Assembly (NCBI GenBank): GCA_028695135.1
Contig: JAQVJM010000002.1
Span: 14,249-78,248, forward strand
Direction: 5' to 3'
DNA length: 64,000 nucleotides
Source: Candidatus Moraniibacteriota bacterium
Lineage (GTDB): Bacteria; Patescibacteriota; Minisyncoccia; Moranbacterales; UBA9337
Part shown: one piece after another, positions 17,390 through 47,074 of the stretch
Layout of the letters: every line of letters starts with the position of its first letter
Numbering within the stretch: position 1 is the stretch's first letter
Program-made: the position numbers and the translations under genes
The notes under the pieces: model-generated
What the model was told of the DNA's origin: nothing
What the model saw: only the letters and a program-made list of their open reading frames with translations
Database searches by the model: none

Positions 17390-17416
17390 AAAAACCCGCC
17401 AGAGCGGGATTTTATG
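17390..17416. terminator. Hairpin terminator between convergent genes (stronger T-run for the minus-strand gene)
   Basis: CCCGC-CAGA-GCGGG flanked by A-run and T-run. Confidence 0.5.
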
Positions 17417-18551
17417 ATTTTGGATTTTTCTTTGCCCTTAGGCTTGCGTCGAATCTGATTCCCCCGGGATTCAATGCTTCGATTGCGCTCATTATTTCAT
17501 GGTTTTCCAAGCCTCTTCCTATCCTGTTTTCCATTTTCTTTATTTTTTTCAAGTAATCCATTATTAATTTTTTTCTTATCTCATCATCTTCTTTGGTTTT
17601 AAATCTGTCTATTTCCAAAGTTAAATGTCTGGCCAATTTTCTTTTGTCAGTTTTAAAATGCATCGCTTCTATCCCGTCGCTTATTTCTTTCAAAAAATTC
17701 AGATGCCTTTCCGGTCGCTCGTGATAATCCTTGGCCGGTTTCGTTTTTATAAAATTGGGCTTTTTCTTTATAAGAGTAGGCCCTTCCTTATAAGCCGTTA
17801 TTATCTTTTTCAGAGCCTTTTCCCTGTCTCCCGCTTCGTATTCTTCTTTTCCTATGCCGTATATCTTATATAACATAGCGACGTAGATCGCCCCAAAAGC
17901 TCGTCCGTGTCGAGGGCTCTCTTTTATTATCTTTTTTATTTTTTCCAGCTTTGCGGTCGACTGGAGATTGCTGTGGGGATTTATCTCTCTGTAATCGACC
18001 AGCCGGTGGAGCTTCTCGATGATATCTCTTGTGGCCGCTTCTCGCAGTTGCATCACTCCGAAGGCCCCTTTGTTTTCCAACGGTTCAGGGTTTCTCACAT
18101 TTTTTATGCTTCCTCCGGATTCTCTTAGCTCTATGGCATCGACGAGATGATCGTTTACCAGATCTTCCGGCAGAAAGCCTTTTTTATCATAAATCTCGTG
18201 TGATATCTCTATCATTTTATCTGCCAATTCCCGGGCGTTCAATTTTTCCAGATCGATCGTTTCATATTTTTCATTTTTGATTTCCGAAGCATCATATTTT
18301 TTTTCTGTCAATCCTTCCTTATTTTCTGCATAATTCTTTCTGCGGAAAAATTTTCCTATAGCTTCTATGATGCTGGTCACTTTTCTCGGTTCCTGAGTTA
18401 TTGCTGTAGCCGATAAAGCGGTGACAGCAAATCCAAATAAAAAATCCCGCCTGCTGAGCATCGTTTTTTCGAAATTTCCTGCCATAGGTTTTTCAGAGCT
18501 GTTTTCCTCAGGCTTATTTTTTTTCGGCGATACATAAGATTCTATTTTCAT
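17412..18551 (-). CDS. Lytic-transglycosylase-like (SLT-domain) protein with twin-arginine-like signal peptide
   Basis: LSRRDFLFGFAVTALSATA resembles a Tat motif; ELRESGGS...GAFGVMQL matches the SLT catalytic E-S...GAxGxMQ signature. Confidence 0.55.
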   Translation of the reverse strand: MKIESYVSPKKNKPEENSSEKPMAGNFEKTMLSRRDFLFGFAVTALSATAITQEPRKVTSIIEAIGKFFRRKNYAENKEGLTEKKYDASEIKNEKYETIDLEKLNARELADKMIEISHEIYDKKGFLPEDLVNDHLVDAIELRESGGSIKNVRNPEPLENKGAFGVMQLREAATRDIIEKLHRLVDYREINPHSNLQSTAKLEKIKKIIKESPRHGRAFGAIYVAMLYKIYGIGKEEYEAGDREKALKKIITAYKEGPTLIKKKPNFIKTKPAKDYHERPERHLNFLKEISDGIEAMHFKTDKRKLARHLTLEIDRFKTKEDDEIRKKLIMDYLKKIKKMENRIGRGLENHEIMSAIEALNPGGIRFDASLRAKKNPKS

Positions 18552-18706
18552 ATTTTTATTATATAATAATAAACAAAATGAGCCAATAAAAATAATAAAT
18601 AAAAATCACGCGAAAATACGGTCGTCAGTTTATGTGAAGGAAATAAAAAATCAATATACTTGATTGAAAGAGGTTTTTTATATAGTATGGACTTATTGGA
18701 AATTTA

Positions 18707-18879
18707 TGGGGATTAGCCAAGCGGTAAGGCAGCTAGTGGCGCCTGTCCTGCTTAAAGTTCCGAGATCGTCTAATGGTAGGACGACGGGTTCTGGTCCCGT
18801 TAATCCTGGTTCGAGTCCAGGTCTCGGAACTTTGCGCGGGAGTCCCCGTCATGCGGGGGTTCGAATCCCTCATCCCCAG
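18707..18879 (+). pseudogene. Disrupted bacterial-type tRNA-Gln-like gene. The 5' part (18707-18731) carries acceptor strand plus D arm; the 3' part (18836-18879) carries an anticodon-stem hairpin with a 4-nt loop, T arm and 3' acceptor strand. The halves are separated by ~104 nt that contain a complete tRNA gene
   Basis: 5' TGGGGATTAGCCAAGCGGTAAGGCA is nearly identical to the E. coli tRNA-Gln 5' end (UGGGGUAUCGCCAAGCGGUAAGGCA). 3' GCGGG-AGTC-CCCGT CATGC GGGGGTTCGAATCCCTC ATCCCCA G is perfectly complementary to the 5' acceptor strand with U1:A72. The anticodon loop is only 4 nt. Confidence 0.5.
18759..18829 (+). tRNA. tRNA-Gln (anticodon CUG), Glu-like body, U1:A72
   Basis: Cloverleaf TCCGAGA TC GTCT AATGGTA GGAC G ACGGG TTCTGGT CCCGT TAAT CCTGG TTCGAGT CCAGG TCTCGGA A; anticodon loop TT-CTG-GT; D arm resembles tRNA-Glu. 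Confidence 0.8.
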
Positions 18880-18963
18880 CAAGAAAAACCAGAAGGGATT
18901 TGAAGGGCGTGAGTGGGTCGAGCGCCCAGATCCGAAGGGGAATACCTTATTCCCAATATAAAA

Positions 18964-18988
18964 AGACACTCTCGGTGTCTCTTTTTTA
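18964..18988 (+). terminator. Rho-independent terminator after the tRNA cluster
   Basis: AGACAC-TCTCG-GTGTCT followed by CTTTTTT. Confidence 0.65.
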
Positions 18989-19000
18989 TTTATTCATATT

Positions 19001-19897
19001 TTACGGCTGTAAGATATCCTCGGTTCTTCCATCGATCGAAATCACGACATTTTCAACTGTCGGAAATTGTTTCAAGGTTTCGGTTATCTGGGCGCGGATG
19101 GCTGTCACTCGGCAGGATCCTCCGACAGCTCTTTCCAGCTGTTCATCAAAGTCGGCATAGGCGGTTCCGTTCTGGATGGTTATTTTTTGCAGTTTGACAT
19201 CCGGATTTATGGAGGTGAAATATCCCGAATCTTTTTCTTCCCGGGTCGGGCCGACCAAAAGTTCTTCTATGGCTCTTTTGCCGACTGCCTGGGTTCGAGT
19301 GATCGTTCTTTCCCGCGCATACATCTCAGAGCACAGGTCGACGTCGTTATCATTGCCGAAAAAAACTTTTACCGTCATTGTTTCTGTCGGAGCGAATCTT
19401 ATCGGAATCTCTAGCGAATCGTCGAGCTCGCGCATATCGGACGGATTATCTTTTTGAAAAATCAATTTTCCTTCTTGCGCTCCTCGGGAATCGAATTCCA
19501 GAAAGGCCGTGAAGGGGACGAATTCCTCGGTCATCCATTCTTCCTGGGCCGTGGCTATGGCGCTTCCCAGCTCCTGTCCGTTTTCGTTCAGGAGAATTAT
19601 AGGAAAGCTGGCTTCAAAATACCAAGTCCCGCGAGCTTCACCGGATATTTCCAAGGGACTGGATATTTCATCTCCGGCGGACAAGTCCTTGACCCGGATG
19701 AGATCATTTTTTTCTGTTTCAGAAGTCTCTTTCCCGATCTCTTTGCCTTCTTGATCTTCTTCAGAAACGGGAATCCGATCCGTTTCCGGCGGGATGCCGG
19801 AATCATTCTTATTTTTATTAAAAAAATAAAAAGCGAAAAATACCAGAAAAAGGACTGCCGTTGCGATGTAAAAAAGTTTTTTCGTATTTTCCGCCAT
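19001..19897 (-). CDS. GerMN-domain protein (LpqB/Gmad2-like), membrane-anchored
   Basis: N-terminal TM; C-terminal GTREEKDSGYFTSINPDVKLQKITIQNGTAYADFDEQL...GGSCRVTAIRAQITETLKQFPTVENVVISIDGRTEDILQP is typical of the GerMN domain. Confidence 0.6.
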   Translation of the reverse strand: MAENTKKLFYIATAVLFLVFFAFYFFNKNKNDSGIPPETDRIPVSEEDQEGKEIGKETSETEKNDLIRVKDLSAGDEISSPLEISGEARGTWYFEASFPIILLNENGQELGSAIATAQEEWMTEEFVPFTAFLEFDSRGAQEGKLIFQKDNPSDMRELDDSLEIPIRFAPTETMTVKVFFGNDNDVDLCSEMYARERTITRTQAVGKRAIEELLVGPTREEKDSGYFTSINPDVKLQKITIQNGTAYADFDEQLERAVGGSCRVTAIRAQITETLKQFPTVENVVISIDGRTEDILQP

Positions 19898-26677: not shown

Positions 26678-27661
26678 ATGAAAAAATATTACAAACCTAA
26701 GGTTGTTTCTCCTTCTTTTGAGATAGTTCCCGATGATATCGGCTTGGCCGTAAGGATAGAGTTTACCGGCCGGGTTTGCTACAAGAGCGAGGACAGGATA
26801 AGTGCCGACTCTTCAGCCGGATTTTGCCGGGGAATGGTAAATCACAAACACAATTCCGTTCTCGAAATGGGCGTGCGCACCTGTGAGGTGAAAGCCAGGA
26901 CTAAGTCGCATATGCGCGAGATAATCATGGCTATGCCGAAGTATCTTTTTATCGATGATTTTCCTTTTGAAAAAAGGACTCTGATAACCGGAAGCGTGCG
27001 CGCTTTCCGGGAAATGCTGATGAGACTTCCTGGAAATGAGATAATAAGGACGATTGCTTTTGACATGAATAAAAATCATCCTTATTTTTTTGAGGATATA
27101 GCATCTTTGCTTCCGGTGAAAAGATCAAGAAAGATTTCTTGTCGGCAAGTTTCCCTAGAGGAAATCGATCAGATGGAACCGGAAATCCAGGCTCGCCATC
27201 GACATTTGGCGGTCAAGTTTATCGTCAGTCGCGCGGTGACTCATGAAATCGTCCGGCATCGCCCTTGCTCTTTTCTGCAAGAGAGCCAGCGATATTGTTG
27301 CTATAGCGATGGAAAATTCGGTTCTCGCATTACTTTCATCAAACCTGTATTTTTCAAAGAGGACAGCGAGGATTATGAGATATGGGGGAAAGAATGTTTA
27401 TCAGCCGAGGCCGTCTATATGAAGTTGATAAAAAACAATTCCCCCCAGGCGGCTCGCACGGTTCTTCCAAATTCCTGTAAGACGGAAATATTTGTCTATG
27501 CGAATCTGGCAGAGTGGCATCATATTCTTCATATGCGCACAAGCAAGGCTGCCGAGCCTTCAATGCGGGAAGTTATGATCCCCCTGCAAAAAGAACTTAT
27601 GAAAAGATTTCCCGAACAGAATTTTGGAGAGCCTCTCCGGATGCCGGAGGGCTATGTGTAG
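26678..27661 (+). CDS. thyX: Flavin-dependent thymidylate synthase ThyX (with N-terminal extension)
   Basis: Signature EIVRHRPCSFLQESQRY (RHR-X7-S...QRY) plus LPNSCKTEIFVYANLAEWHHILHMRTS C-terminal ThyX region. Confidence 0.85.
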   Translation: MKKYYKPKVVSPSFEIVPDDIGLAVRIEFTGRVCYKSEDRISADSSAGFCRGMVNHKHNSVLEMGVRTCEVKARTKSHMREIIMAMPKYLFIDDFPFEKRTLITGSVRAFREMLMRLPGNEIIRTIAFDMNKNHPYFFEDIASLLPVKRSRKISCRQVSLEEIDQMEPEIQARHRHLAVKFIVSRAVTHEIVRHRPCSFLQESQRYCCYSDGKFGSRITFIKPVFFKEDSEDYEIWGKECLSAEAVYMKLIKNNSPQAARTVLPNSCKTEIFVYANLAEWHHILHMRTSKAAEPSMREVMIPLQKELMKRFPEQNFGEPLRMPEGYV

Positions 27662-27776: not shown

Positions 27777-29141
27777 ATGATGAATAATGAAAAAAATAAT
27801 CACGTGATCAGAGATTTGGACAACGGCGGGTTCGTCTTGGTTCTGAATAACGGAGCCGAGATCGACGGGCAGGCGGAAGCCATGCTCCAAGCGCTCCATT
27901 CGCGTTCCACCGGGGGAATAAAAAGCCATCTGAAAATATTGGAAGAGAAGGGCGCGGAGGATTTTATGGAAAAGTTTTATGTGGGCTACGGGCATAAATC
28001 CATAGGAGATTGCGGCAGCGCGACCGTTTTTGTGGAAGGAATATCGATGCTGGCCGCCAAAGCCATTCAGGACTGGCGGCTTTATTCGGGGCAGGAAGCT
28101 TCGACCAGATACGTTGATTTTTCCAAGCAGAAATTCTTGGATCCCACCGGCAAGGAAGAAGGAAAAGAAGTTTTGGAGAATTGGAGGAAATTTTATCTTA
28201 AAGCCCAAGAGCCCGTAAGAAAACATCTAAAAAAACAATTTCCGAAGGGAAAGGAAGAAGATATAAATATATATGAAAAAGCGATTAAGGCGAGAGCCTT
28301 TGATATTACCAGATCATTTCTCCCGGCCGGAGCGACTACCAATGTAGCCTGGAGGATGAATTTTCGCCAGTTTGCCGATGAGCTGATGCTTCTCAGACAT
28401 CATCCGCTTAAAGAGGTTCGGGATATTGCCGAGAAAACCGAAGAAGCTCTCAAGGAAATGTACCCCAGTTCTTTCGGGCACGAAAGATTTGCGCATACCG
28501 AAGAATACAATAAAAAATGGATGCGAGATAAATATTATTATAAGAATGAAAGTGCCGGAGACTTCGAATTGATTTACGATAATGTTGATAGGAAAATGCT
28601 TTCCGAATATGGAGAAGTTTTGAAATCAAGACCTATGAAGACGGAGTTGCCTGCGGCAATCGGAGAGTGCGGGACAGTAGCTTTTGAATTTTTATTGGAT
28701 TTCGGGTCTTTCAGGGACTTCCAGAGACATCGCGCAATCGTACAAAGGATGCCTCTCTTAGTGATGATCCACGGATTCAATGAGTGGTATTTGGACGCTT
28801 TGCCGGAAAATTTAAGAGAAAAGGCTGAAAAATTCATCAAAGAGCAGGAAAGAAAAATTGAAAAGATCGATGCTTCTGAAACAGACAAGCAATATTTCAT
28901 GGCGATGGGGTATCGGGTTCCATGCAGGTTTTCAGGAGATTTAAAAGCGCTGGTTTATCTGACTGAACTCCGATCGACCCGATTCGTCCATCCGACATTA
29001 GTTGAACAGATACTTAAAATGATCAATAATATGAAGGAATTATTTGAAAAAGACGGGTTGGTATTCCACCTAGACGAGGAGCCGAACAGGTTTGACGTAA
29101 GAAGAGGGGAGCAAGACATAATTGAAAAACATAAATCATAA
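27777..29141 (+). CDS. Tandem-duplicated ThyX-like protein (two ThyX-fold halves fused). Half 1 retains S-x-Q-E-x-S-x-RY but lacks RHR; half 2 retains RHR but lacks the Ser/RY part
   Basis: Half 1: GFVLVLNNGAEIDGQAEAMLQALHSRS...GHKSIGDCGSATVFVEGISMLAAKAIQDWRLYSGQEASTRY...RSFLPAGATTNVAWRMNFRQFADELMLLR. Half 2: GSFRDFQRHRAIVQRMP...MAMGYRVPCRFSGDLKALVYLTELRSTRF. Confidence 0.7.
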   Translation: MMNNEKNNHVIRDLDNGGFVLVLNNGAEIDGQAEAMLQALHSRSTGGIKSHLKILEEKGAEDFMEKFYVGYGHKSIGDCGSATVFVEGISMLAAKAIQDWRLYSGQEASTRYVDFSKQKFLDPTGKEEGKEVLENWRKFYLKAQEPVRKHLKKQFPKGKEEDINIYEKAIKARAFDITRSFLPAGATTNVAWRMNFRQFADELMLLRHHPLKEVRDIAEKTEEALKEMYPSSFGHERFAHTEEYNKKWMRDKYYYKNESAGDFELIYDNVDRKMLSEYGEVLKSRPMKTELPAAIGECGTVAFEFLLDFGSFRDFQRHRAIVQRMPLLVMIHGFNEWYLDALPENLREKAEKFIKEQERKIEKIDASETDKQYFMAMGYRVPCRFSGDLKALVYLTELRSTRFVHPTLVEQILKMINNMKELFEKDGLVFHLDEEPNRFDVRRGEQDIIEKHKS

Positions 29142-35176: not shown

Positions 35177-35880
35177 GTATGAGCGTTCAAGATTTTTATT
35201 ATGATGTAATTTTTTAAAGATAATAAATTACTTGAAAAGACAACAAAACAAATCTAAATACAAAAGCGGGTGAATTTTTTTACAGCTATTTTTTAGTTGT
35301 CAAGAGATTGCTCGCCATTAAGGCGAGTTTTTTATTTGGTCCTGCGGATGGCGGAATTATGCGGAAGTCTGGACAAAATAATGTAAAATAGGAGTTGTGC
35401 CGAAATACTTTTTTGTGAATATTTCATGAAAAAATATTTCCGCGCAAATCCGGTAAGAATGATCCGGATGAAGCGAACCTTAAAAATTTAATATTGACCT
35501 ATTGAGTAGCTTTGATCCAGATCAAGCAATTGCGGAAAATCTGATCGGGGCCAAGAAATAGGCGTAGGTAAATCCTGCCGCTTTATCGGCGGCGGGAAAC
35601 AAAGCAATTGCAGTTGACGATCTTAAATGATTGTTAACTGTTAACTTTACCCCGTGTAATCCAGCTTTGCTGGTCTCGCTTGCGAGAATTTCACGGGGTG
35701 AATCCTGCCGCTTTCGAGCGGTGGGAAAAACAACAAAAAGGTTACTTAAGCGTATGGTGGATGCCTAGACTCGTGTGAGCGATGAAGGACGTAGCAGATT
35801 GCGATAAGCCTCGGGGAGCTGTCAAGCAAGCTTTGATCCGGGGATTTCCGAATGGGGAAACCCAGCCGTACATAGCACAG

Positions 35881-36012
35881 AAAATCCGAAATTTAAAATC
35901 CGAAATCCTAAACAATTTTAAAGTCCAAATAATTTAAATTTAAAAACTTTTTAAATTTAGAATTTGGAAAATTTTAATTTATTTAGAAATTGATGCTTTG
36001 AATTTCGAATTT
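35881..36012 (+). repeat. 23S intervening sequence IVS1 (AT-rich hairpin element family) in the helix 9/10 hairpin loop
   Basis: Interrupts the loop of stem CCGTACATAGCACAG/CCGTGTTGTGTGCGG; begins AAAATCCGAAATTTAAAATCCGAAATCCTAAACAAT, ends ...GAATTTCGAATTTC; internally self-complementary. Confidence 0.7.
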
Positions 36013-36382
36013 CCGTGTTGTGTGCGGTTACTATTATCTGAATTCATAGGATAATGGAGCAAACCCAGTGAACTGAAACATCTTAGTAGCTGGAGGAATA
36101 GAAATCAATAGAGATTCCGCAAGTAGTGGCGAGCGAACGCGGAACAGTCTAAAACTCGTCGCCCTCGGGCGACGGGTGGTTGCGAGATAATTGTACTCGT
36201 TTAATCGGGATTGCCTCATATTTTTTAGCAGAACGTTCTGGAAAGAACGGCCAAAGGAAGTAATAGCCTTGTATGCGAAAAAAAATATGAAGCGATGAAA
36301 TTATTCTCAAGTAAGGCGGGACCGGAGAAATCCCGTCTGAATCCGGGAGCACTAACTTCCAAGACTAAATATTACACGAGAT

Positions 36383-36419
<37 letters not shown>

Positions 36420-36492
36420 CATCCCGATAAGGGAGATGAAATAGTATCTGAAACCATATGTTAACAAGGAGTCAGAGCCGTACGTAGTACGG

Positions 36493-36623
36493 AAATCCGA
36501 ATATTAAAATCCGAAATCCGAAACAATATCAAAATTCGAATTGCAAAAATTCAAAAAAATTTTGAATTTAGAATTTTGAAAATTATGATTTGTTTAGAAT
36601 TTCGTGTTTAGAGTTTAGAATTT
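36493..36623 (+). repeat. 23S intervening sequence IVS2 (same family) in the helix 25 loop
   Basis: Interrupts stem GCCGTACGTAGTACGG/CCGCACTGCGCACGGC; begins AAATCCGAATATTAAAATCCGAAATCCGAAACAAT. Confidence 0.7.
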
Positions 36624-37817
36624 CCGCACTGCGCACGGCGATGGCGTGCTTTTTGCAGAACGAGCCAACGAGTTAGTTTTATACGGCTTGCATAAATTAC
36701 TCTGTAAGATATGCATAGTGAAAGCGAGGCTTAACCGCCGATTTTGTCGTATGGACTAGACCCGAATCCAGGCGAGCTACGCATGGGCAGGGCGAACCCC
36801 GAGTAACATCGGGGGGAGGCCCGCACCCACTGATCGTTCGACATCAGGGGATGACCTGTGCGTAGGGGAGAAATTCCAATCGAGCTTGGCTATAGCTGGT
36901 TCTCTCCGAAATAGCTTTGGGGCTAGCGTTCGTTAAATGAGCGCGGGAGGTAGAGCTACTGGATGAGTGTTCGCGGTTCGCCGTAGAACACTCAACCAAA
37001 CTCCGAATTCTTGCGTTTCTTATTCGAGCAGTCAGAAATCCGGCTCTAAGGTCGGATCTCAAAAGGGAAAAAGCCCAGACCATAATCTAAGGTCCCTAAA
37101 TTCATATTAAGTGGCAAAGGAAGTAGAGTTTCTTAAACACCTAGTAGGTTGGCTTAGAAGCAGCCATCCTTTAAAGAGTGCGTAATAGCTCACTAGCTTA
37201 GAGACTTTGCGCCGAAGATGTAACGGGGCTAAATATGATACCGAAGATATGGACCTGTCGCTCTCGAGCGACGGGTGGTAGGAGAGCGTTCTCTGTGAGC
37301 CGAAGCCAAAGGCGTGAGCCATGGTGGATCGCAGAGAAGTGAGAATGTTGGCATGAGTAACCGCAATGTGAGTGAGATCCTCACACCCCGAAAGTTCAAG
37401 GTTTCCTGGGCAATGGCAATCATCCCAGGGTTAGTCGGTCCTAAGGCGAGGCTGAAAGGCGTAGTCGATGGACATACGGTTAATATTCCGTGACTATGAT
37501 TACAATCGATGGAGTGACGCATTTTAGTAACTGTCGCATGTTATTGGATTCATGTAGGTTTTCTGAGGATGTATAGCAGGCAAATCCGTTATACATTAAG
37601 TCCAAGGAAAATCTGGACGCTTCTCTTCGGAGGAGCTAACGACAGCCAGCAGAGTGCCAGGAAAAACTTCTAAGATTATTGTTTTCATATCCGTACCGCA
37701 AACCGACACAGGTGAACAGGGCGAGTAGCCTAAGGGGAACGGGAGAACCTTCGCTAAGGAACTCGGCAAAAAATCTAGACGTAAGTTCGCGAGATGTCTT
37801 GCCAGTGCTTAGCACTA

Positions 37818-37938
37818 AAAATTCGAAATCCGAATATCGAAATCCGAAACAATATCAAAATTCAAATAATTAAGGGCCGTTTTGAATTTAAAAAATTTGA
37901 AAATTATAATTTGTTTTGAGTTTCGTATTTTGATATTC
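37818..37938 (+). repeat. 23S intervening sequence IVS3 (same family) in a domain IV variable helix (helix 63 region)
   Basis: Begins AAAATTCGAAATCCGAATATCGAAATCCGAAACAATATCAAAATTCAAAT; ends ...TTTTGAGTTTCGTATTTTGATATT. Confidence 0.65.
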
Positions 37939-38123
37939 GTGCTTTTGGTGCTATGCATTGGCCGCAGCTAAAGATTCCAAGCGACTGTTTATCAAAAACA
38001 CAGGTCTCTGCAAACCCGTAAGGGGATGTATAGGGGCTGACGCCTGACCAGTGCTGGAACGTTAACGGGAGCGGTGCAAGCCAATCCCCGAAGCGCCAGT
38101 GAACGTCGGCGATAACTATAATC

Positions 38124-38155
<32 letters not shown>

Positions 38156-38384
38156 ATTCCGACCCGCATCAAAGGCGTAACGACTTGGAAACTGTCTCAG
38201 TGAAGGACCCGGTGAAATTGCAATAACGGTAAAGATGCCGTTTACCTACGGCAAGACGAGAAGACCCCGTGGAGCTTTACTACAACTTGGCATTGAATTA
38301 AGATTCTGGCTGCCGAGAATAGGTGGGAGACTTTGAAACCGCGATCCAGGTCGCGGTGGAGTCGCCAGTGGAATACCACCCTGT

Positions 38385-38525
38385 CATTATTTTAATTCTA
38401 ACCCTGTGCTGTTAAGAGTTTGGTAGAAAGTATAAAGTAGCAAGTATAAAGTATGGCAAACCACAATATATATCTTAGTGTCTGAACATAATACATACTA
38501 CATAATACTTCCTGCTTGATTCTTA
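38385..38525 (+). other. ~90-nt expansion in the 23S helix 79 region containing (AAGTATAAAGTA)x2
   Basis: About 140 nt where E. coli has ~50 nt between GAAATACCACCC and CAGTGTCTGGTGGGTAGTTTGA. Confidence 0.45.
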
Positions 38526-38742
38526 CCAGCACGGGAACAGTGCCTGGTGGGTAGTTTGAGTGGGGCGCTCGCCTCCTAAATGGTAACGGAGGCGCTTACA
38601 AAGGTTGGCTAAGTCCGGATGGAAATCGGACTGATAGTACAAAAGCATAAGCCAGCTTTACTGAAAGACTAATAAGTCGCTCAGTTACGAAAGTAGAATT
38701 TAGTGAACCGACCATCGCTTGTAGGAGCGTGGAAGATCATCA

Positions 38743-38774
<32 letters not shown>

Positions 38775-38907
38775 AGTGCCCAAGAGTTCATATCGACGGC
38801 ACTGTTTGGCACCTCGATGTCGGCTCATCTCATCCTGGGGCTGGAGCAGGTCCCAAGGGTTTGGCTGTTCGCCAATTAAAGAGGTACGCGAGCTGGGTTC
38901 AAACCGT

Positions 38908-39166
38908 AAAATGGCTTTTTAGCTTTTAGAAAAAGGAAATTTTACAGTTTGAATCCGAGGTTATAGACATCACATCATGGCGGCTTTTGTTAGCAATAAC
39001 AAAAGAGAAGCTAACTAATATCGGTAGAATCCTAGCGAGTAATCGCGGACAATACCGAGGGAATTTGTCTAATTTGACAAAGCCCGTAGAGACTAGACGT
39101 TAGCCTCCATAATTATTTGTGGATGAAGTTATAGTCCAATGCACGCAGTAATGCGTGAAAAACATG
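38908..39166 (+). other. 259-nt ORF-less group-I-intron-like insertion at the classic 23S homing site (between ...AACCGT and CGTGAGACAG, E. coli ~2593)
   Basis: Exon junction matches E. coli GAACGT|CGTGAGACAG; 5' exon ends in U, insert ends in G; core-like elements AGAGACTAGAC (R-like) and AAGTTATAGTCC (S-like, cf. AAGAUAUAGUCC). Confidence 0.55.
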
Positions 39167-39572
39167 CGTGAGACAGGTTGGTCTCTATCTGCCGTAGGCG
39201 TTATTACTTGAGAGGATTCTTTCCTAGTACGAGAGGACCGGAAAGAGCGAACCTCTGGTGCATCGGCTGTTCCGCCAGGAGCAATGTCGAGTAGCTATGT
39301 TCGTAAGGGATAACCGTTGAAAGCATCTAAACGGGAAGCCTACCTCAAGATAAGGTAATTTATGTTTTCCTAGAAGAAGACTAGGTTGATAGGCTCTAGG
39401 TGTAAGCGTAGTGATACGTTTAGCCGAGGAGTACTAATAAACTAAAACCTTTTTTTGTTTTTGCTTAGTGGCATACTATAGTAGCCATTAGGAAAAAAGT
39501 TAACAGTTAACAGCCATTTATATACATCTGGCTGGAGCTTTTTAAAACCTACAATTTTTTTGAATATATGAT

Positions 39573-39686
39573 TCTTGGTGTCTCTAGCGAAGGGGGTACA
39601 CCTGATCCCATTCCGAACTCAGCAGTTAAGCCCTTCAGCGCCGATGATACCCGGTTTTTCCGGGGAAAGTAGGTCGGTGCCAAGAA
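39573..39686 (+). rRNA. rrf: 5S ribosomal RNA
   Basis: TCTTGGTGTCTCTAGCGAAGGGGGTACACCTGATCCCATTCCGAACTCAGCAGTTAAGCCCTTCAGCGCCGATGATAC...GTAGGTCGGTGCCAAGA; flanked by complementary ATATGATTCTTGG/CCAAGAATCATAT processing stem. Confidence 0.85.
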
Positions 39687-46931: not shown

Positions 46932-47074
46932 TATGCAACAAGGCATGATGGGACAGGAGAGAAGAAGGTAATTTAGCGATGTAGCAAAGCGGTAAGGTTA
47001 TTATATCGTTAGTTTAGTCTTAAAAACTATTTATAAAACGATTCGTAGTTTCATAAAATTCGTAATTTGTAGAG

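Follow-up and report, generated by a model that had tools for sequence, protein, structure and literature searches.

A 64,000-nucleotide stretch of contig JAQVJM010000002.1 from a Candidatus Moraniibacteriota bacterium (hereafter the window) contains a composite locus of 173 nucleotides (nt), in which a complete tRNA-Gln(CUG) gene lies between the two halves of a second, structurally different tRNA-Gln gene (Table 1). In our assessment, the resident tRNA-Gln(CUG) gene of this lineage, designated here type i, has probably been replaced in place by a tRNA-Gln of a foreign type, designated type ii, that came as a unit flanked by its own leader-trailer helix. Loci from other genomes and metagenomes with which the window was compared are referred to by L numbers.

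The inner gene is the sole tRNA called by ARAGORN at the locus (tRNA-Gln(CUG), 18759-18830), and the segment 18759-18829 scores 61.5 bits with the Rfam tRNA model RF00005, the gathering score of which is 29. An earlier note on this DNA had placed a complete tRNA-Gln(CUG) at exactly this position, and both programs agree with it. The encoded tRNA has a body of 70 nt, a 7-nt anticodon loop (TTCTGGT) carrying U33 and, at position 37, a purine, the U1:A72 pair that is a hallmark of tRNA-Gln, a 4-nt variable loop, the discriminator A at 18829, and the type-ii D arm TCGTCTAATGGTAGGAC. The earlier note had further taken the inner tRNA to be Glu-like and Glu-derived, a view that did not survive the comparison with other sequences: its D arm and anticodon arm (TCTAATGGTAGGAC..CGGGTTYTGRTCCCG) are present in at least 119 metagenome contigs, and among the matches listed these arms always belong to ordinary, stand-alone tRNA-Gln genes with U1:A72. 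Judged by these matches, the inner tRNA is a member of a widespread class of bacterial tRNA-Gln and not a derivative of tRNA-Glu. Its closest relative among the sequences compared is the inner tRNA of L253, with which it shares 62 of 70 positions. Type i (GCCAAGYGGTAAGGC), the class resembling the tRNA-Gln of Escherichia coli and Bacillus, is used by the retrieved Moranbacteria and Peregrinibacteria metagenome-assembled genomes (MAGs) and by the two syntenic relatives of the locus, L124 and L125. The inner tRNA is probably the only tRNA-Gln(CUG) of the genome. Its charging would take place either with Glu, followed by conversion to Gln via GatCAB, or by GlnRS; the GatB protein was seen only in the relative L125. 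As a separate observation, the 323-kb phage contig L126 (IMG/VR UViG_3300037722_000745) carries 21 tRNA genes within 8.8 kb, among them two type-ii tRNA-Gln(CUG) genes, neither of which has a flanking helix or an outer shell.

The outer sequences are equally well defined. The 5' half reads TGGGGAT-TA-GCCAAGCGGTAAGGC-A, and its local alignment to the type-i D arm scores 18, against a background that does not exceed 8. The 3' half consists of GCGGG-AGTC-CCCGT (18836-18849), the variable loop CATGC (18850-18854), the T arm GGGGG-TTCGAAT-CCCTC (18855-18871), the acceptor strand ATCCCCA (18872-18878) and a G (18879) at the discriminator position. The two acceptor strands pair at all seven positions, just as the earlier note had stated. 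The gene neighbourhood of the locus is shared by L124, where the homologue of the 379-amino-acid (aa) neighbour is 51% identical, and by L125, where the GerMN-domain neighbour is 62% identical and about 20 genes stand in the same order. Both relatives have an ordinary, uninterrupted tRNA-Gln(CUG) gene at the syntenic spot (in L125 it reads TGGGTCGTAGCCAAGCGGTAAGGCAACGGGTTCTGGTCCCGTCATGCGGGGGTTCGAATCCCTCCGACCCAA). When the outer halves are joined, 58 of 69 positions are identical to the intact gene of L125, so that the flanking pieces are indeed, as had been proposed, those of a second tRNA-Gln; the differences comprise three compensatory acceptor pairs, the exchange A27G, the discriminator, and the replacement of the loop TTCTGGT by AGTC. 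Positions 8 to 26 of the outer gene are identical to the tRNA-Gln(CUG) genes of both relatives, CCCGTCATGCGGGGGTTCGAATCCCTC of its 3' half is identical to L125, and the syntenic relatives show no difference from it in D arm, variable loop and T arm. By this measure, the outer gene is the orthologue of the lineage's own type-i tRNA-Gln(CUG). Since the gene is uninterrupted in L124 and L125, the state found in the window was acquired and not inherited. Furthermore, a block at the promoter-like site (TTGATTGA.AG.G.TTTTTT.TATAGTAT) is also present upstream of the intact tRNA-Gln(CUG) gene of L124, and a hairpin element downstream of the locus has a counterpart in L125; hence both flanks are native, and the change occurred within the gene.

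What the outer gene has lost is its anticodon. The relic of its anticodon arm has a 4-nt loop, AGTC, as the earlier note had recognized, and the outer gene is neither called by ARAGORN in its default, intron and -ps modes nor matched by the Rfam tRNA model. The intron and pseudogene modes, a check that the earlier note had proposed, return the inner tRNA and, beyond it, no more than a single spurious minus-strand call at a low threshold. With the insert deleted in silico, ARAGORN remains silent at default settings and reports a 'tRNA-??? (gt)' only at a lowered threshold; when the 7-nt loop is restored in silico, the gene is called as tRNA-Gln(ctg). We favour the view that the outer gene cannot decode and is a dead relic, which is in substance the pseudogene that the earlier note had offered as one of its two explanations.

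The other explanation, a tRNA with a tRNA-containing intervening sequence that would be removed so that the outer exons are ligated to a functional tRNA, we regard as very improbable. It could draw on the group I intron that the window carries in its 23S rRNA gene, and on the pairing between the two flanks of the insert. Against this, no group I or group II signal was obtained in 18300-19300 at E<=10 by a search that does detect the intron of the 23S gene. What remains of the approximately 104-nt insert once the 70-nt tRNA is subtracted is too short for a ribozyme, the insert is located between position 26 and the anticodon stem and thus outside the anticodon loop, the rejoined exons would have the 4-nt loop for which ARAGORN makes no tRNA call at default settings, and the helix lacks bulge-helix-bulge (BHB) geometry. 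The locus can likewise not be read as three independent tRNAs, the fold that the earlier note had named as an alternative to the nesting: apart from the inner tRNA, the Rfam tRNA model finds nothing in 18300-19300 at E<=10 except for an 18-nt T-arm match to transfer-messenger RNA (tmRNA), and no such fold was found.

That the arrangement stems from an assembly chimera or a sequencing artefact has a practically negligible probability in our estimate. Metagenome-derived genomes can misassemble at repeated tRNA sequences, and no positive sign of such an event was found; no fewer than five assemblies, independent of each other and made from different samples by different pipelines (ENA, JGI, Logan), contain a 350-nt region around the locus at 100% identity and differ from the window elsewhere by 1 to 10 single-nucleotide polymorphisms. 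This identity across independent assemblies that are themselves distinguishable argues against an artefact.

Further comparative evidence concerns the sequences that immediately border the inner tRNA. The earlier note had seen that AAAGT and ACTTT pair with each other; this pairing holds, yet it is only the proximal part of a conserved helix of 13-14 base pairs (bp) that travels with this class of tRNA and is not incidental to the locus. In the minimum-free-energy (MFE) fold, the pairing extends as TCCTGC/GCGGGA, so that 18746-18758 is joined to 18829-18841. In the window, 12 of the 14 columns of this flank helix are paired, in register with the acceptor stem and including a pair between positions -1 and 73; the helix is continuous with one mismatch. 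When seven lineages are aligned without gaps (A2), 97% of the cells pair, as compared with 82% in shuffled alignments and 34-54% when the partners are slid against each other. Changes on both sides are found in 10 of the 14 flank pairs, and column 23/96 reads GC, CG, AU and UA in different sequences. A de novo analysis with RNAalifold agrees with the helix, as it yields a 21-bp stem with a cloverleaf. A covariance model of the helix-flanked unit (R1), built from seven training sequences that include the window, gives 116.6 bits for the window unit (18735-18852); helix-flanked loci score between 116 and 130 bits, whereas ordinary type-ii genes reach no more than 87 bits. L261, which comes from a named Ca. 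Buchananbacteria genome and is outside the training set, scores 119.7 bits, and two intermediate cases exist (L222, 102 bits; L218, 94 bits). Among 110 distinct type-ii loci, a helix of this kind is confined to the helix-flanked units described here, and flanks that are re-paired seldom score above 5.

The same helix architecture was found in a metagenome match, L134, whose FtsX neighbour led to orthologous loci. These are FtsE-FtsX-tRNA-Gln(UUG)-YidC loci from Buchananbacteria-like members of the Candidate Phyla Radiation (CPR), represented by L246, L247-L249, L250, L252-L255 and L261. At the FtsX-tRNA-YidC locus, the helix is present in L134, L246, L247, L250, L253, L254 and L261, and L197 possesses a helix as well. 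Every FtsE-FtsX-tRNA-YidC locus that has both tRNA flanks carries a helix of 13-14 bp with the -1:73 pair, in register with the acceptor stem; the sequence of L252 breaks off within the tRNA and that of L246 within the trailer strand. The leader-trailer helix is a conserved and covarying feature of type-ii tRNA-Gln in Buchananbacteria-like CPR bacteria.

Helices of similar design are not restricted to this tRNA. Leader-trailer helices of 8-10 bp flank tRNA-Gly(CCC) in L247 (2188-2259) and L250 (2142-2216), and one of the same length flanks a type-i tRNA-Gln(CUG) in the Peregrinibacteria MAG L042 (3708-3780); the tRNA-Ser and tRNA-Arg genes of the window, when checked for such a helix, have none. 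In view of the similar helices around other CPR tRNAs, the structure appears to be a trait of certain CPR tRNA precursors and not the ends of a transposon. The idea that the two strands are the terminal inverted repeats of a transposon was considered and is weakened both by the compensatory evolution of the helix in place and by its counterparts at other tRNAs. Another candidate, in which the CTTTG that follows the inner tRNA was read as a displaced UUG anticodon loop, was set aside since the orthologous loci have TAGTG or GCCTG at this spot, paired with the leader. Two further observations concern the FtsX-YidC loci. Upstream of its helix-flanked tRNA-Gln, L253 contains a duplicate of the leader strand and the first 13 nt of the tRNA (~1875-1985), into which 37 nt that form a hairpin are inserted. 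An archease gene (L247, 5522-5929; L248, 3400-3807) is situated some 1.4 kb downstream from the helix-flanked tRNA-Gln; archease is a cofactor of RtcB-type RNA ligases.

Outside the window, the outer shell is found in various stages of decay or is missing entirely. L247 and L250 have a helix-flanked tRNA-Gln without any outer shell. In L254, CCAAAAGCGGTAGGGCA lies upstream and scores 11 against the type-i D arm (background at most 8, n=125). L134 possesses a weaker 5' remnant, and downstream 26 nt from its own 3' part are repeated and followed by ..CCCCCCA, while L197 has a degenerate T arm and acceptor strand downstream. Shell-less loci and decayed remnants in other lineages favour the view that the outer pieces are eroding relics and not a required scaffold. 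They bear directly on the proposal that the shell is kept because it functions, be it as a tRNA-shaped handle for RNase P, RNase Z or the CCA enzyme, as a stabilizer of the precursor, or as a two-piece RNA without an anticodon that has a non-decoding role. The perfect outer acceptor stem, the D and T arms with G18G19 and the TTCGAAT elbow motif, the compensatory nature of all three acceptor pairs that differ from the relatives, and the stable fold of the whole 173 nt (-81.6 kcal/mol, z -4.6) are all compatible with such a role. The compensatory changes may, however, predate the disruption, the outer gene lacks an anticodon, and no RNA family of this type is present in Rfam. Together with the loci that do without a shell or retain only decayed pieces of it, these points make a functional shell quite improbable.

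We surveyed sequence collections for further cases of a split type-i tRNA-Gln with the pattern CCAAGYGGTAAGGC-N{104,134}-CATGCNNNNNTTCRAATC. In 185,579 species genomes, a collection to which the genome of the window itself does not belong, no nested case was present among the 115 matches listed; these are either tRNA genes in tandem, Gln-Gln in most cases, or cases of a partial copy next to an intact tRNA-Gln gene. Viral contigs gave 0 matches to this split-gene pattern, and likewise 0 to the nested signature and to the junction of leader and tRNA. A scan of metagenomes for the type-ii arms gave two helix-flanked cases, L134 and L197, among the matches listed, and a search for further relatives via the GerMN neighbour (P0011, P0012) led to loci that are not syntenic and lack a tRNA. 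The earlier note had called the arrangement highly unusual for bacteria. With respect to rarity this is correct, given its absence from the species genomes with the pattern used and among the matches listed; it is not unique, since relics at helix-flanked tRNA-Gln genes recur in CPR contigs. Apart from these cases, partial copies of tRNA-Gln, corresponding to 5' or 3' parts of the gene and in some instances provided with odd anticodon arms (e.g., CCCCG-CCTTGG-CGGGG), lie less than about 100 nt from intact genes in L040, L042, L052, L066, L067, L082, L084, L098, L105, L116 and L222, and occur in genomes of Gammaproteobacteria, Eremiobacterota and the CPR. That partial copies are so common beside intact genes speaks for frequent recombination at tRNA-Gln genes.

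The recurrence of relics raises the question of whether the tRNA-Gln and its flanking helix, alone or together with the tRNA-Gln pieces next to them, could form a self-propagating replacement cassette, a mobile or 'homing' element of small size directed at resident tRNA-Gln genes. It might enter with the aid of a site-specific recombinase that uses the anticodon arm as its core, or by homologous recombination via the D-arm and T-arm sequences, which are universally conserved, and it would be tolerated because it supplies a working tRNA-Gln. Several observations fit such an element. Type-ii tRNA-Gln has this flank architecture in no fewer than three CPR lineages that differ in gene neighbourhood (the window; L134/L254 and their relatives; L197), tRNA-Gln-like remnants adjoin several of these units, and partial copies stand beside intact genes in many genomes. 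Equally in line with it are the uninterrupted genes that are still present in L124 and L125, as well as the fact that the relics of the window and of L134 both lack exactly nucleotides 32-36. In addition, the distal helix strands look like those of a tRNA-Gln anticodon stem with their order exchanged, which is the outcome expected of a duplicated recombination core. On the other side of the balance, no integrase, transposase or endonuclease gene is present within about 3 kb, the viral contigs gave 0 matches, the species genomes contain no nested case within the scope stated above, and the homology of the junctions between lineages is short and merely suggestive. Furthermore, the helix at the FtsX-YidC loci evolves by compensatory change in place, which favours an RNA function over active terminal repeats, and similar helices occur at unrelated CPR tRNAs (tRNA-Gly(CCC), type-i tRNA-Gln). 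We therefore consider a self-propagating cassette rather unlikely. Its most far-reaching form, in which the unit is a minimal selfish 'cuckoo' tRNA cassette that repeatedly invades and kills resident CPR tRNA-Gln genes, is directed to a conserved tRNA sequence or the anticodon arm, is tolerated for providing the same decoding function, and brings with its helix a bacterial route of pre-tRNA processing that has not been described, is a speculation that we think unlikely to be correct.

We return to the replacement of the resident type-i gene by a type-ii unit as the favoured explanation. According to this proposal, the type-i gene would have been interrupted between position 26 and the anticodon arm, with loss of its anticodon loop, by an insert of approximately 104 nt that represents a complete type-ii transcription and processing unit, namely the 70-nt tRNA body and the leader-trailer helix of 13-14 bp. 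The composite would then be transcribed from the promoter of the old gene up to the terminator-like hairpin downstream, and the precursor would fold into a 21-bp stem (the 14-column flank helix, 12 columns of which are paired, plus the 7-bp acceptor stem) topped by the inner cloverleaf. We assume that RNase P, together with 3' processing, excises the inner tRNA, perhaps once the helix has been unwound or has received a double-strand-specific cut; as position -1 is paired with position 73 and the helix continues from there, RNase P probably needs the helix to be opened or cut beforehand. The inner tRNA would serve as the decoder of CAG, and the outer halves would be discarded as by-products of a recently inactivated gene.

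Several traces at the locus bear on the way in which the unit might have arrived. Two segments that do not differ from the relatives, an 18-nt one (D arm) and a 27-nt one (variable loop plus T arm), are possible recombination arms. The leader strand resembles the 3' strand of the anticodon stem, so that the distal helix could consist of two copies of the anticodon arm, as the core of a recombinase would leave them. The linker GCTAGTGGCGCCTG may derive, in degenerate form, from the anticodon arm of the host gene (cf. CTAGG-TTCTGG in L124), a homology that is suggestive only; a motif within it, ..GGC.C.TG, is common to L134, L250 and L253, just upstream of the helix. No gene for a recombinase, integrase, transposase or endonuclease was found within about 3 kb of the locus, where the neighbours encode the GerMN-domain protein, glycosyltransferases, a MazE-like protein and hypothetical proteins.

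Several points weigh against a replacement of this kind. The GCGGGA of the trailer serves both as a helix strand and as a strand of the host anticodon stem, and because of this dual role the exact boundaries of the insert are ambiguous. The outer gene, with its fully paired acceptor stem and intact D and T arms, looks as selection would also have left it; our explanation for these flawless halves is a recent inactivation, and this recency is an assumption. Finally, the sampled strains are 99.95-99.97% identical (0.03-0.05% different), a degree of similarity at which strain variation is silent on selection, so that neither the recency of the event nor selection on the outer halves can be read from it.

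Table 1. Features of the composite tRNA-Gln locus and its flanks in the window.
Feature	Positions	Strand	Remarks
Promoter-like site	18660-18688	+	TTGATT (18660-18665), 17-nt spacer, TAGTAT (18683-18688); read from the sequence
Composite locus, 173 nt	18707-18879	+	Between a 379-aa open reading frame (17412-18551, - strand) and the GerMN-domain gene (19001-19897, - strand)
Resident type-i tRNA-Gln, 5' half	18707-18731	+	Acceptor strand 18707-18713, positions 8-9, D arm 18716-18730, A26
Linker GCTAGTGGCGCCTG	18732-18745	+	Between outer 5' half and leader strand
Leader strand of the helix, TCCTGC-TT-AAAGT	18746-18758	+	Pairs with 18829-18841 in the MFE fold; A2 columns 12-24; covariation
Complete type-ii tRNA-Gln(CUG)	18759-18829	+	Anticodon CTG 18791-18793; ARAGORN, Rfam RF00005
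Trailer strand of the helix, A-CTTT-GC-GCGGGA	18829-18841	+	Begins with discriminator A18829, paired to T18758; MFE fold, covariation; last 6 nt are also the 5' strand of the host anticodon-arm relic
Resident type-i tRNA-Gln, 3' half	18836-18879	+	Anticodon-arm relic, variable loop, T arm, acceptor 3' strand, discriminator G
Downstream hairpin element (GGGATTTGAAGGGCGTGAGTGGGTCGAGCGCCCAGATCC)	18895-18935	+	Conserved; same predicted transcript, ahead of the terminator; counterpart in L125
Intrinsic-terminator-like hairpin	18964-18990	+	7-bp stem followed by the T run CTTTTTTATT; putative end of the transcription unit

The promoter-like site matches the consensus at 8 of 12 positions, a value under the threshold of the promoter scanner; conservation with L124 suggests that it would drive the whole composite transcript. 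The hairpin element downstream of the composite locus folds at -25.5 kcal/mol (z -2.65), and its counterpart in L125 (11783-11850) is likewise situated downstream of the tRNA-Gln gene. In the window and in L125 (11783-11907), and only there, an element of this type (GAAGGGCGTGAG...CGCCCAG) was seen 3' of the tRNA-Gln locus; in L125 it ends in a repeat of the tRNA 3' end (ATCCCTCCGACCCAACAT), giving rise to an acceptor-like minihelix. The element looks like tRNA-derived debris or an att-like scar. A further sequence of the window, GCGATGTAGCAAAGCGGTAAGGT (46973-46998, + strand), resembles the 5' part of a type-i tRNA-Gln (13 of 15 D-arm positions, preceded by TA) and may be another tRNA-Gln relic; nothing tRNA-like was seen 3' of it. 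Elsewhere in the window, the 23S rRNA gene (35735-39456, + strand) has a length of 3722 nt as compared with 2925 nt of the model, and contains the match to a group I intron (RF00028, 54.1 bits) at 38961-39158; a 5S rRNA gene follows at 39574-39685. Two adjacent genes on the + strand (26678-27661 and 27777-29141) encode ThyX proteins with a Thy1 domain, of 327 and 454 aa, respectively.

If the locus is interpreted correctly, an isoacceptor of different structure can take the place of an essential tRNA gene at its own site and adopt the promoter of its predecessor, a route of gene turnover that leaves a recognizable shell behind. For genome annotation, it is of relevance that the halves of such a shell can be mistaken for a split or an intron-containing tRNA. 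The conserved and covarying helix around the precursors of CPR tRNA-Gln, and apparently of some tRNA-Gly, represents a second aspect; a literature search retrieved no earlier description of such leader-trailer helices of bacterial pre-tRNAs or of nested bacterial tRNA genes. Should the recurrent association with tRNA-Gln relics reflect targeted insertion, the unit would represent a mobile element of a new kind and of very small size.

Several known systems share individual traits with the locus. Integrative elements leave fragments of tRNA genes at their attL and attR sites, with the anticodon arm or the T arm as the crossover core. As in such att-site scars, pieces of one tRNA gene flank inserted DNA in the window, and the breakpoint is at the anticodon arm; the partial tRNA-Gln copies beside intact genes in many of the genomes compared are a further common trait. 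The locus differs from them in that the insert measures only about 104 nt, no recombinase gene is nearby, and a whole tRNA of another class is carried instead of a rebuilt 3' part of the host gene. As to a direct repeat, no clean one is seen at the locus: 18733-18751 may represent a degenerate first version of the anticodon arm (CTAG..TGG..TCCTGC), with 18836-18849 as the second, but the similarity is too short to score.

Group I introns in the tRNAs of Patescibacteria, as they are described in PMC13011429, reside in the anticodon loop (e.g., at 35/36), are ribozymes of a few hundred nucleotides and splice to yield a working tRNA. The phylum is the same, and these tRNA genes, too, are interrupted and missed by standard annotation; in contrast to the introns as portrayed in that report, the insert of the window lacks a ribozyme signal, is located at another position, and is bordered by exons that cannot make a working tRNA. 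The intron-containing, split and permuted tRNAs of archaea, with their BHB motif (PMC7714728), likewise combine a paired leader and trailer next to the mature ends with separated parts of a tRNA. The window, however, is of bacterial origin, its helix is continuous with the acceptor stem and, by inspection, does not contain two 3-nt bulges 4 bp apart, and, unlike the parts of archaeal split tRNAs, its outer halves lack an anticodon.

The leader-trailer helix of bacterial rRNA operons (PMC10250234) offers a further parallel, as there too the flanks of a stable RNA form a long precursor helix that is maintained by compensatory change; the helix reported here encloses a single tRNA, measures 13-14 bp, includes the -1:73 pair, and is not known to be tied to a nuclease. 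The closest analogue in terms of outcome is an ordinary tRNA pseudogene after the horizontal replacement of an isoacceptor, in which the resident gene is likewise dead and a gene with the same anticodon takes over. What sets the window apart from this situation is the place of the replacement, which is found not elsewhere in the genome but inside the dead gene, on whose promoter it would depend.

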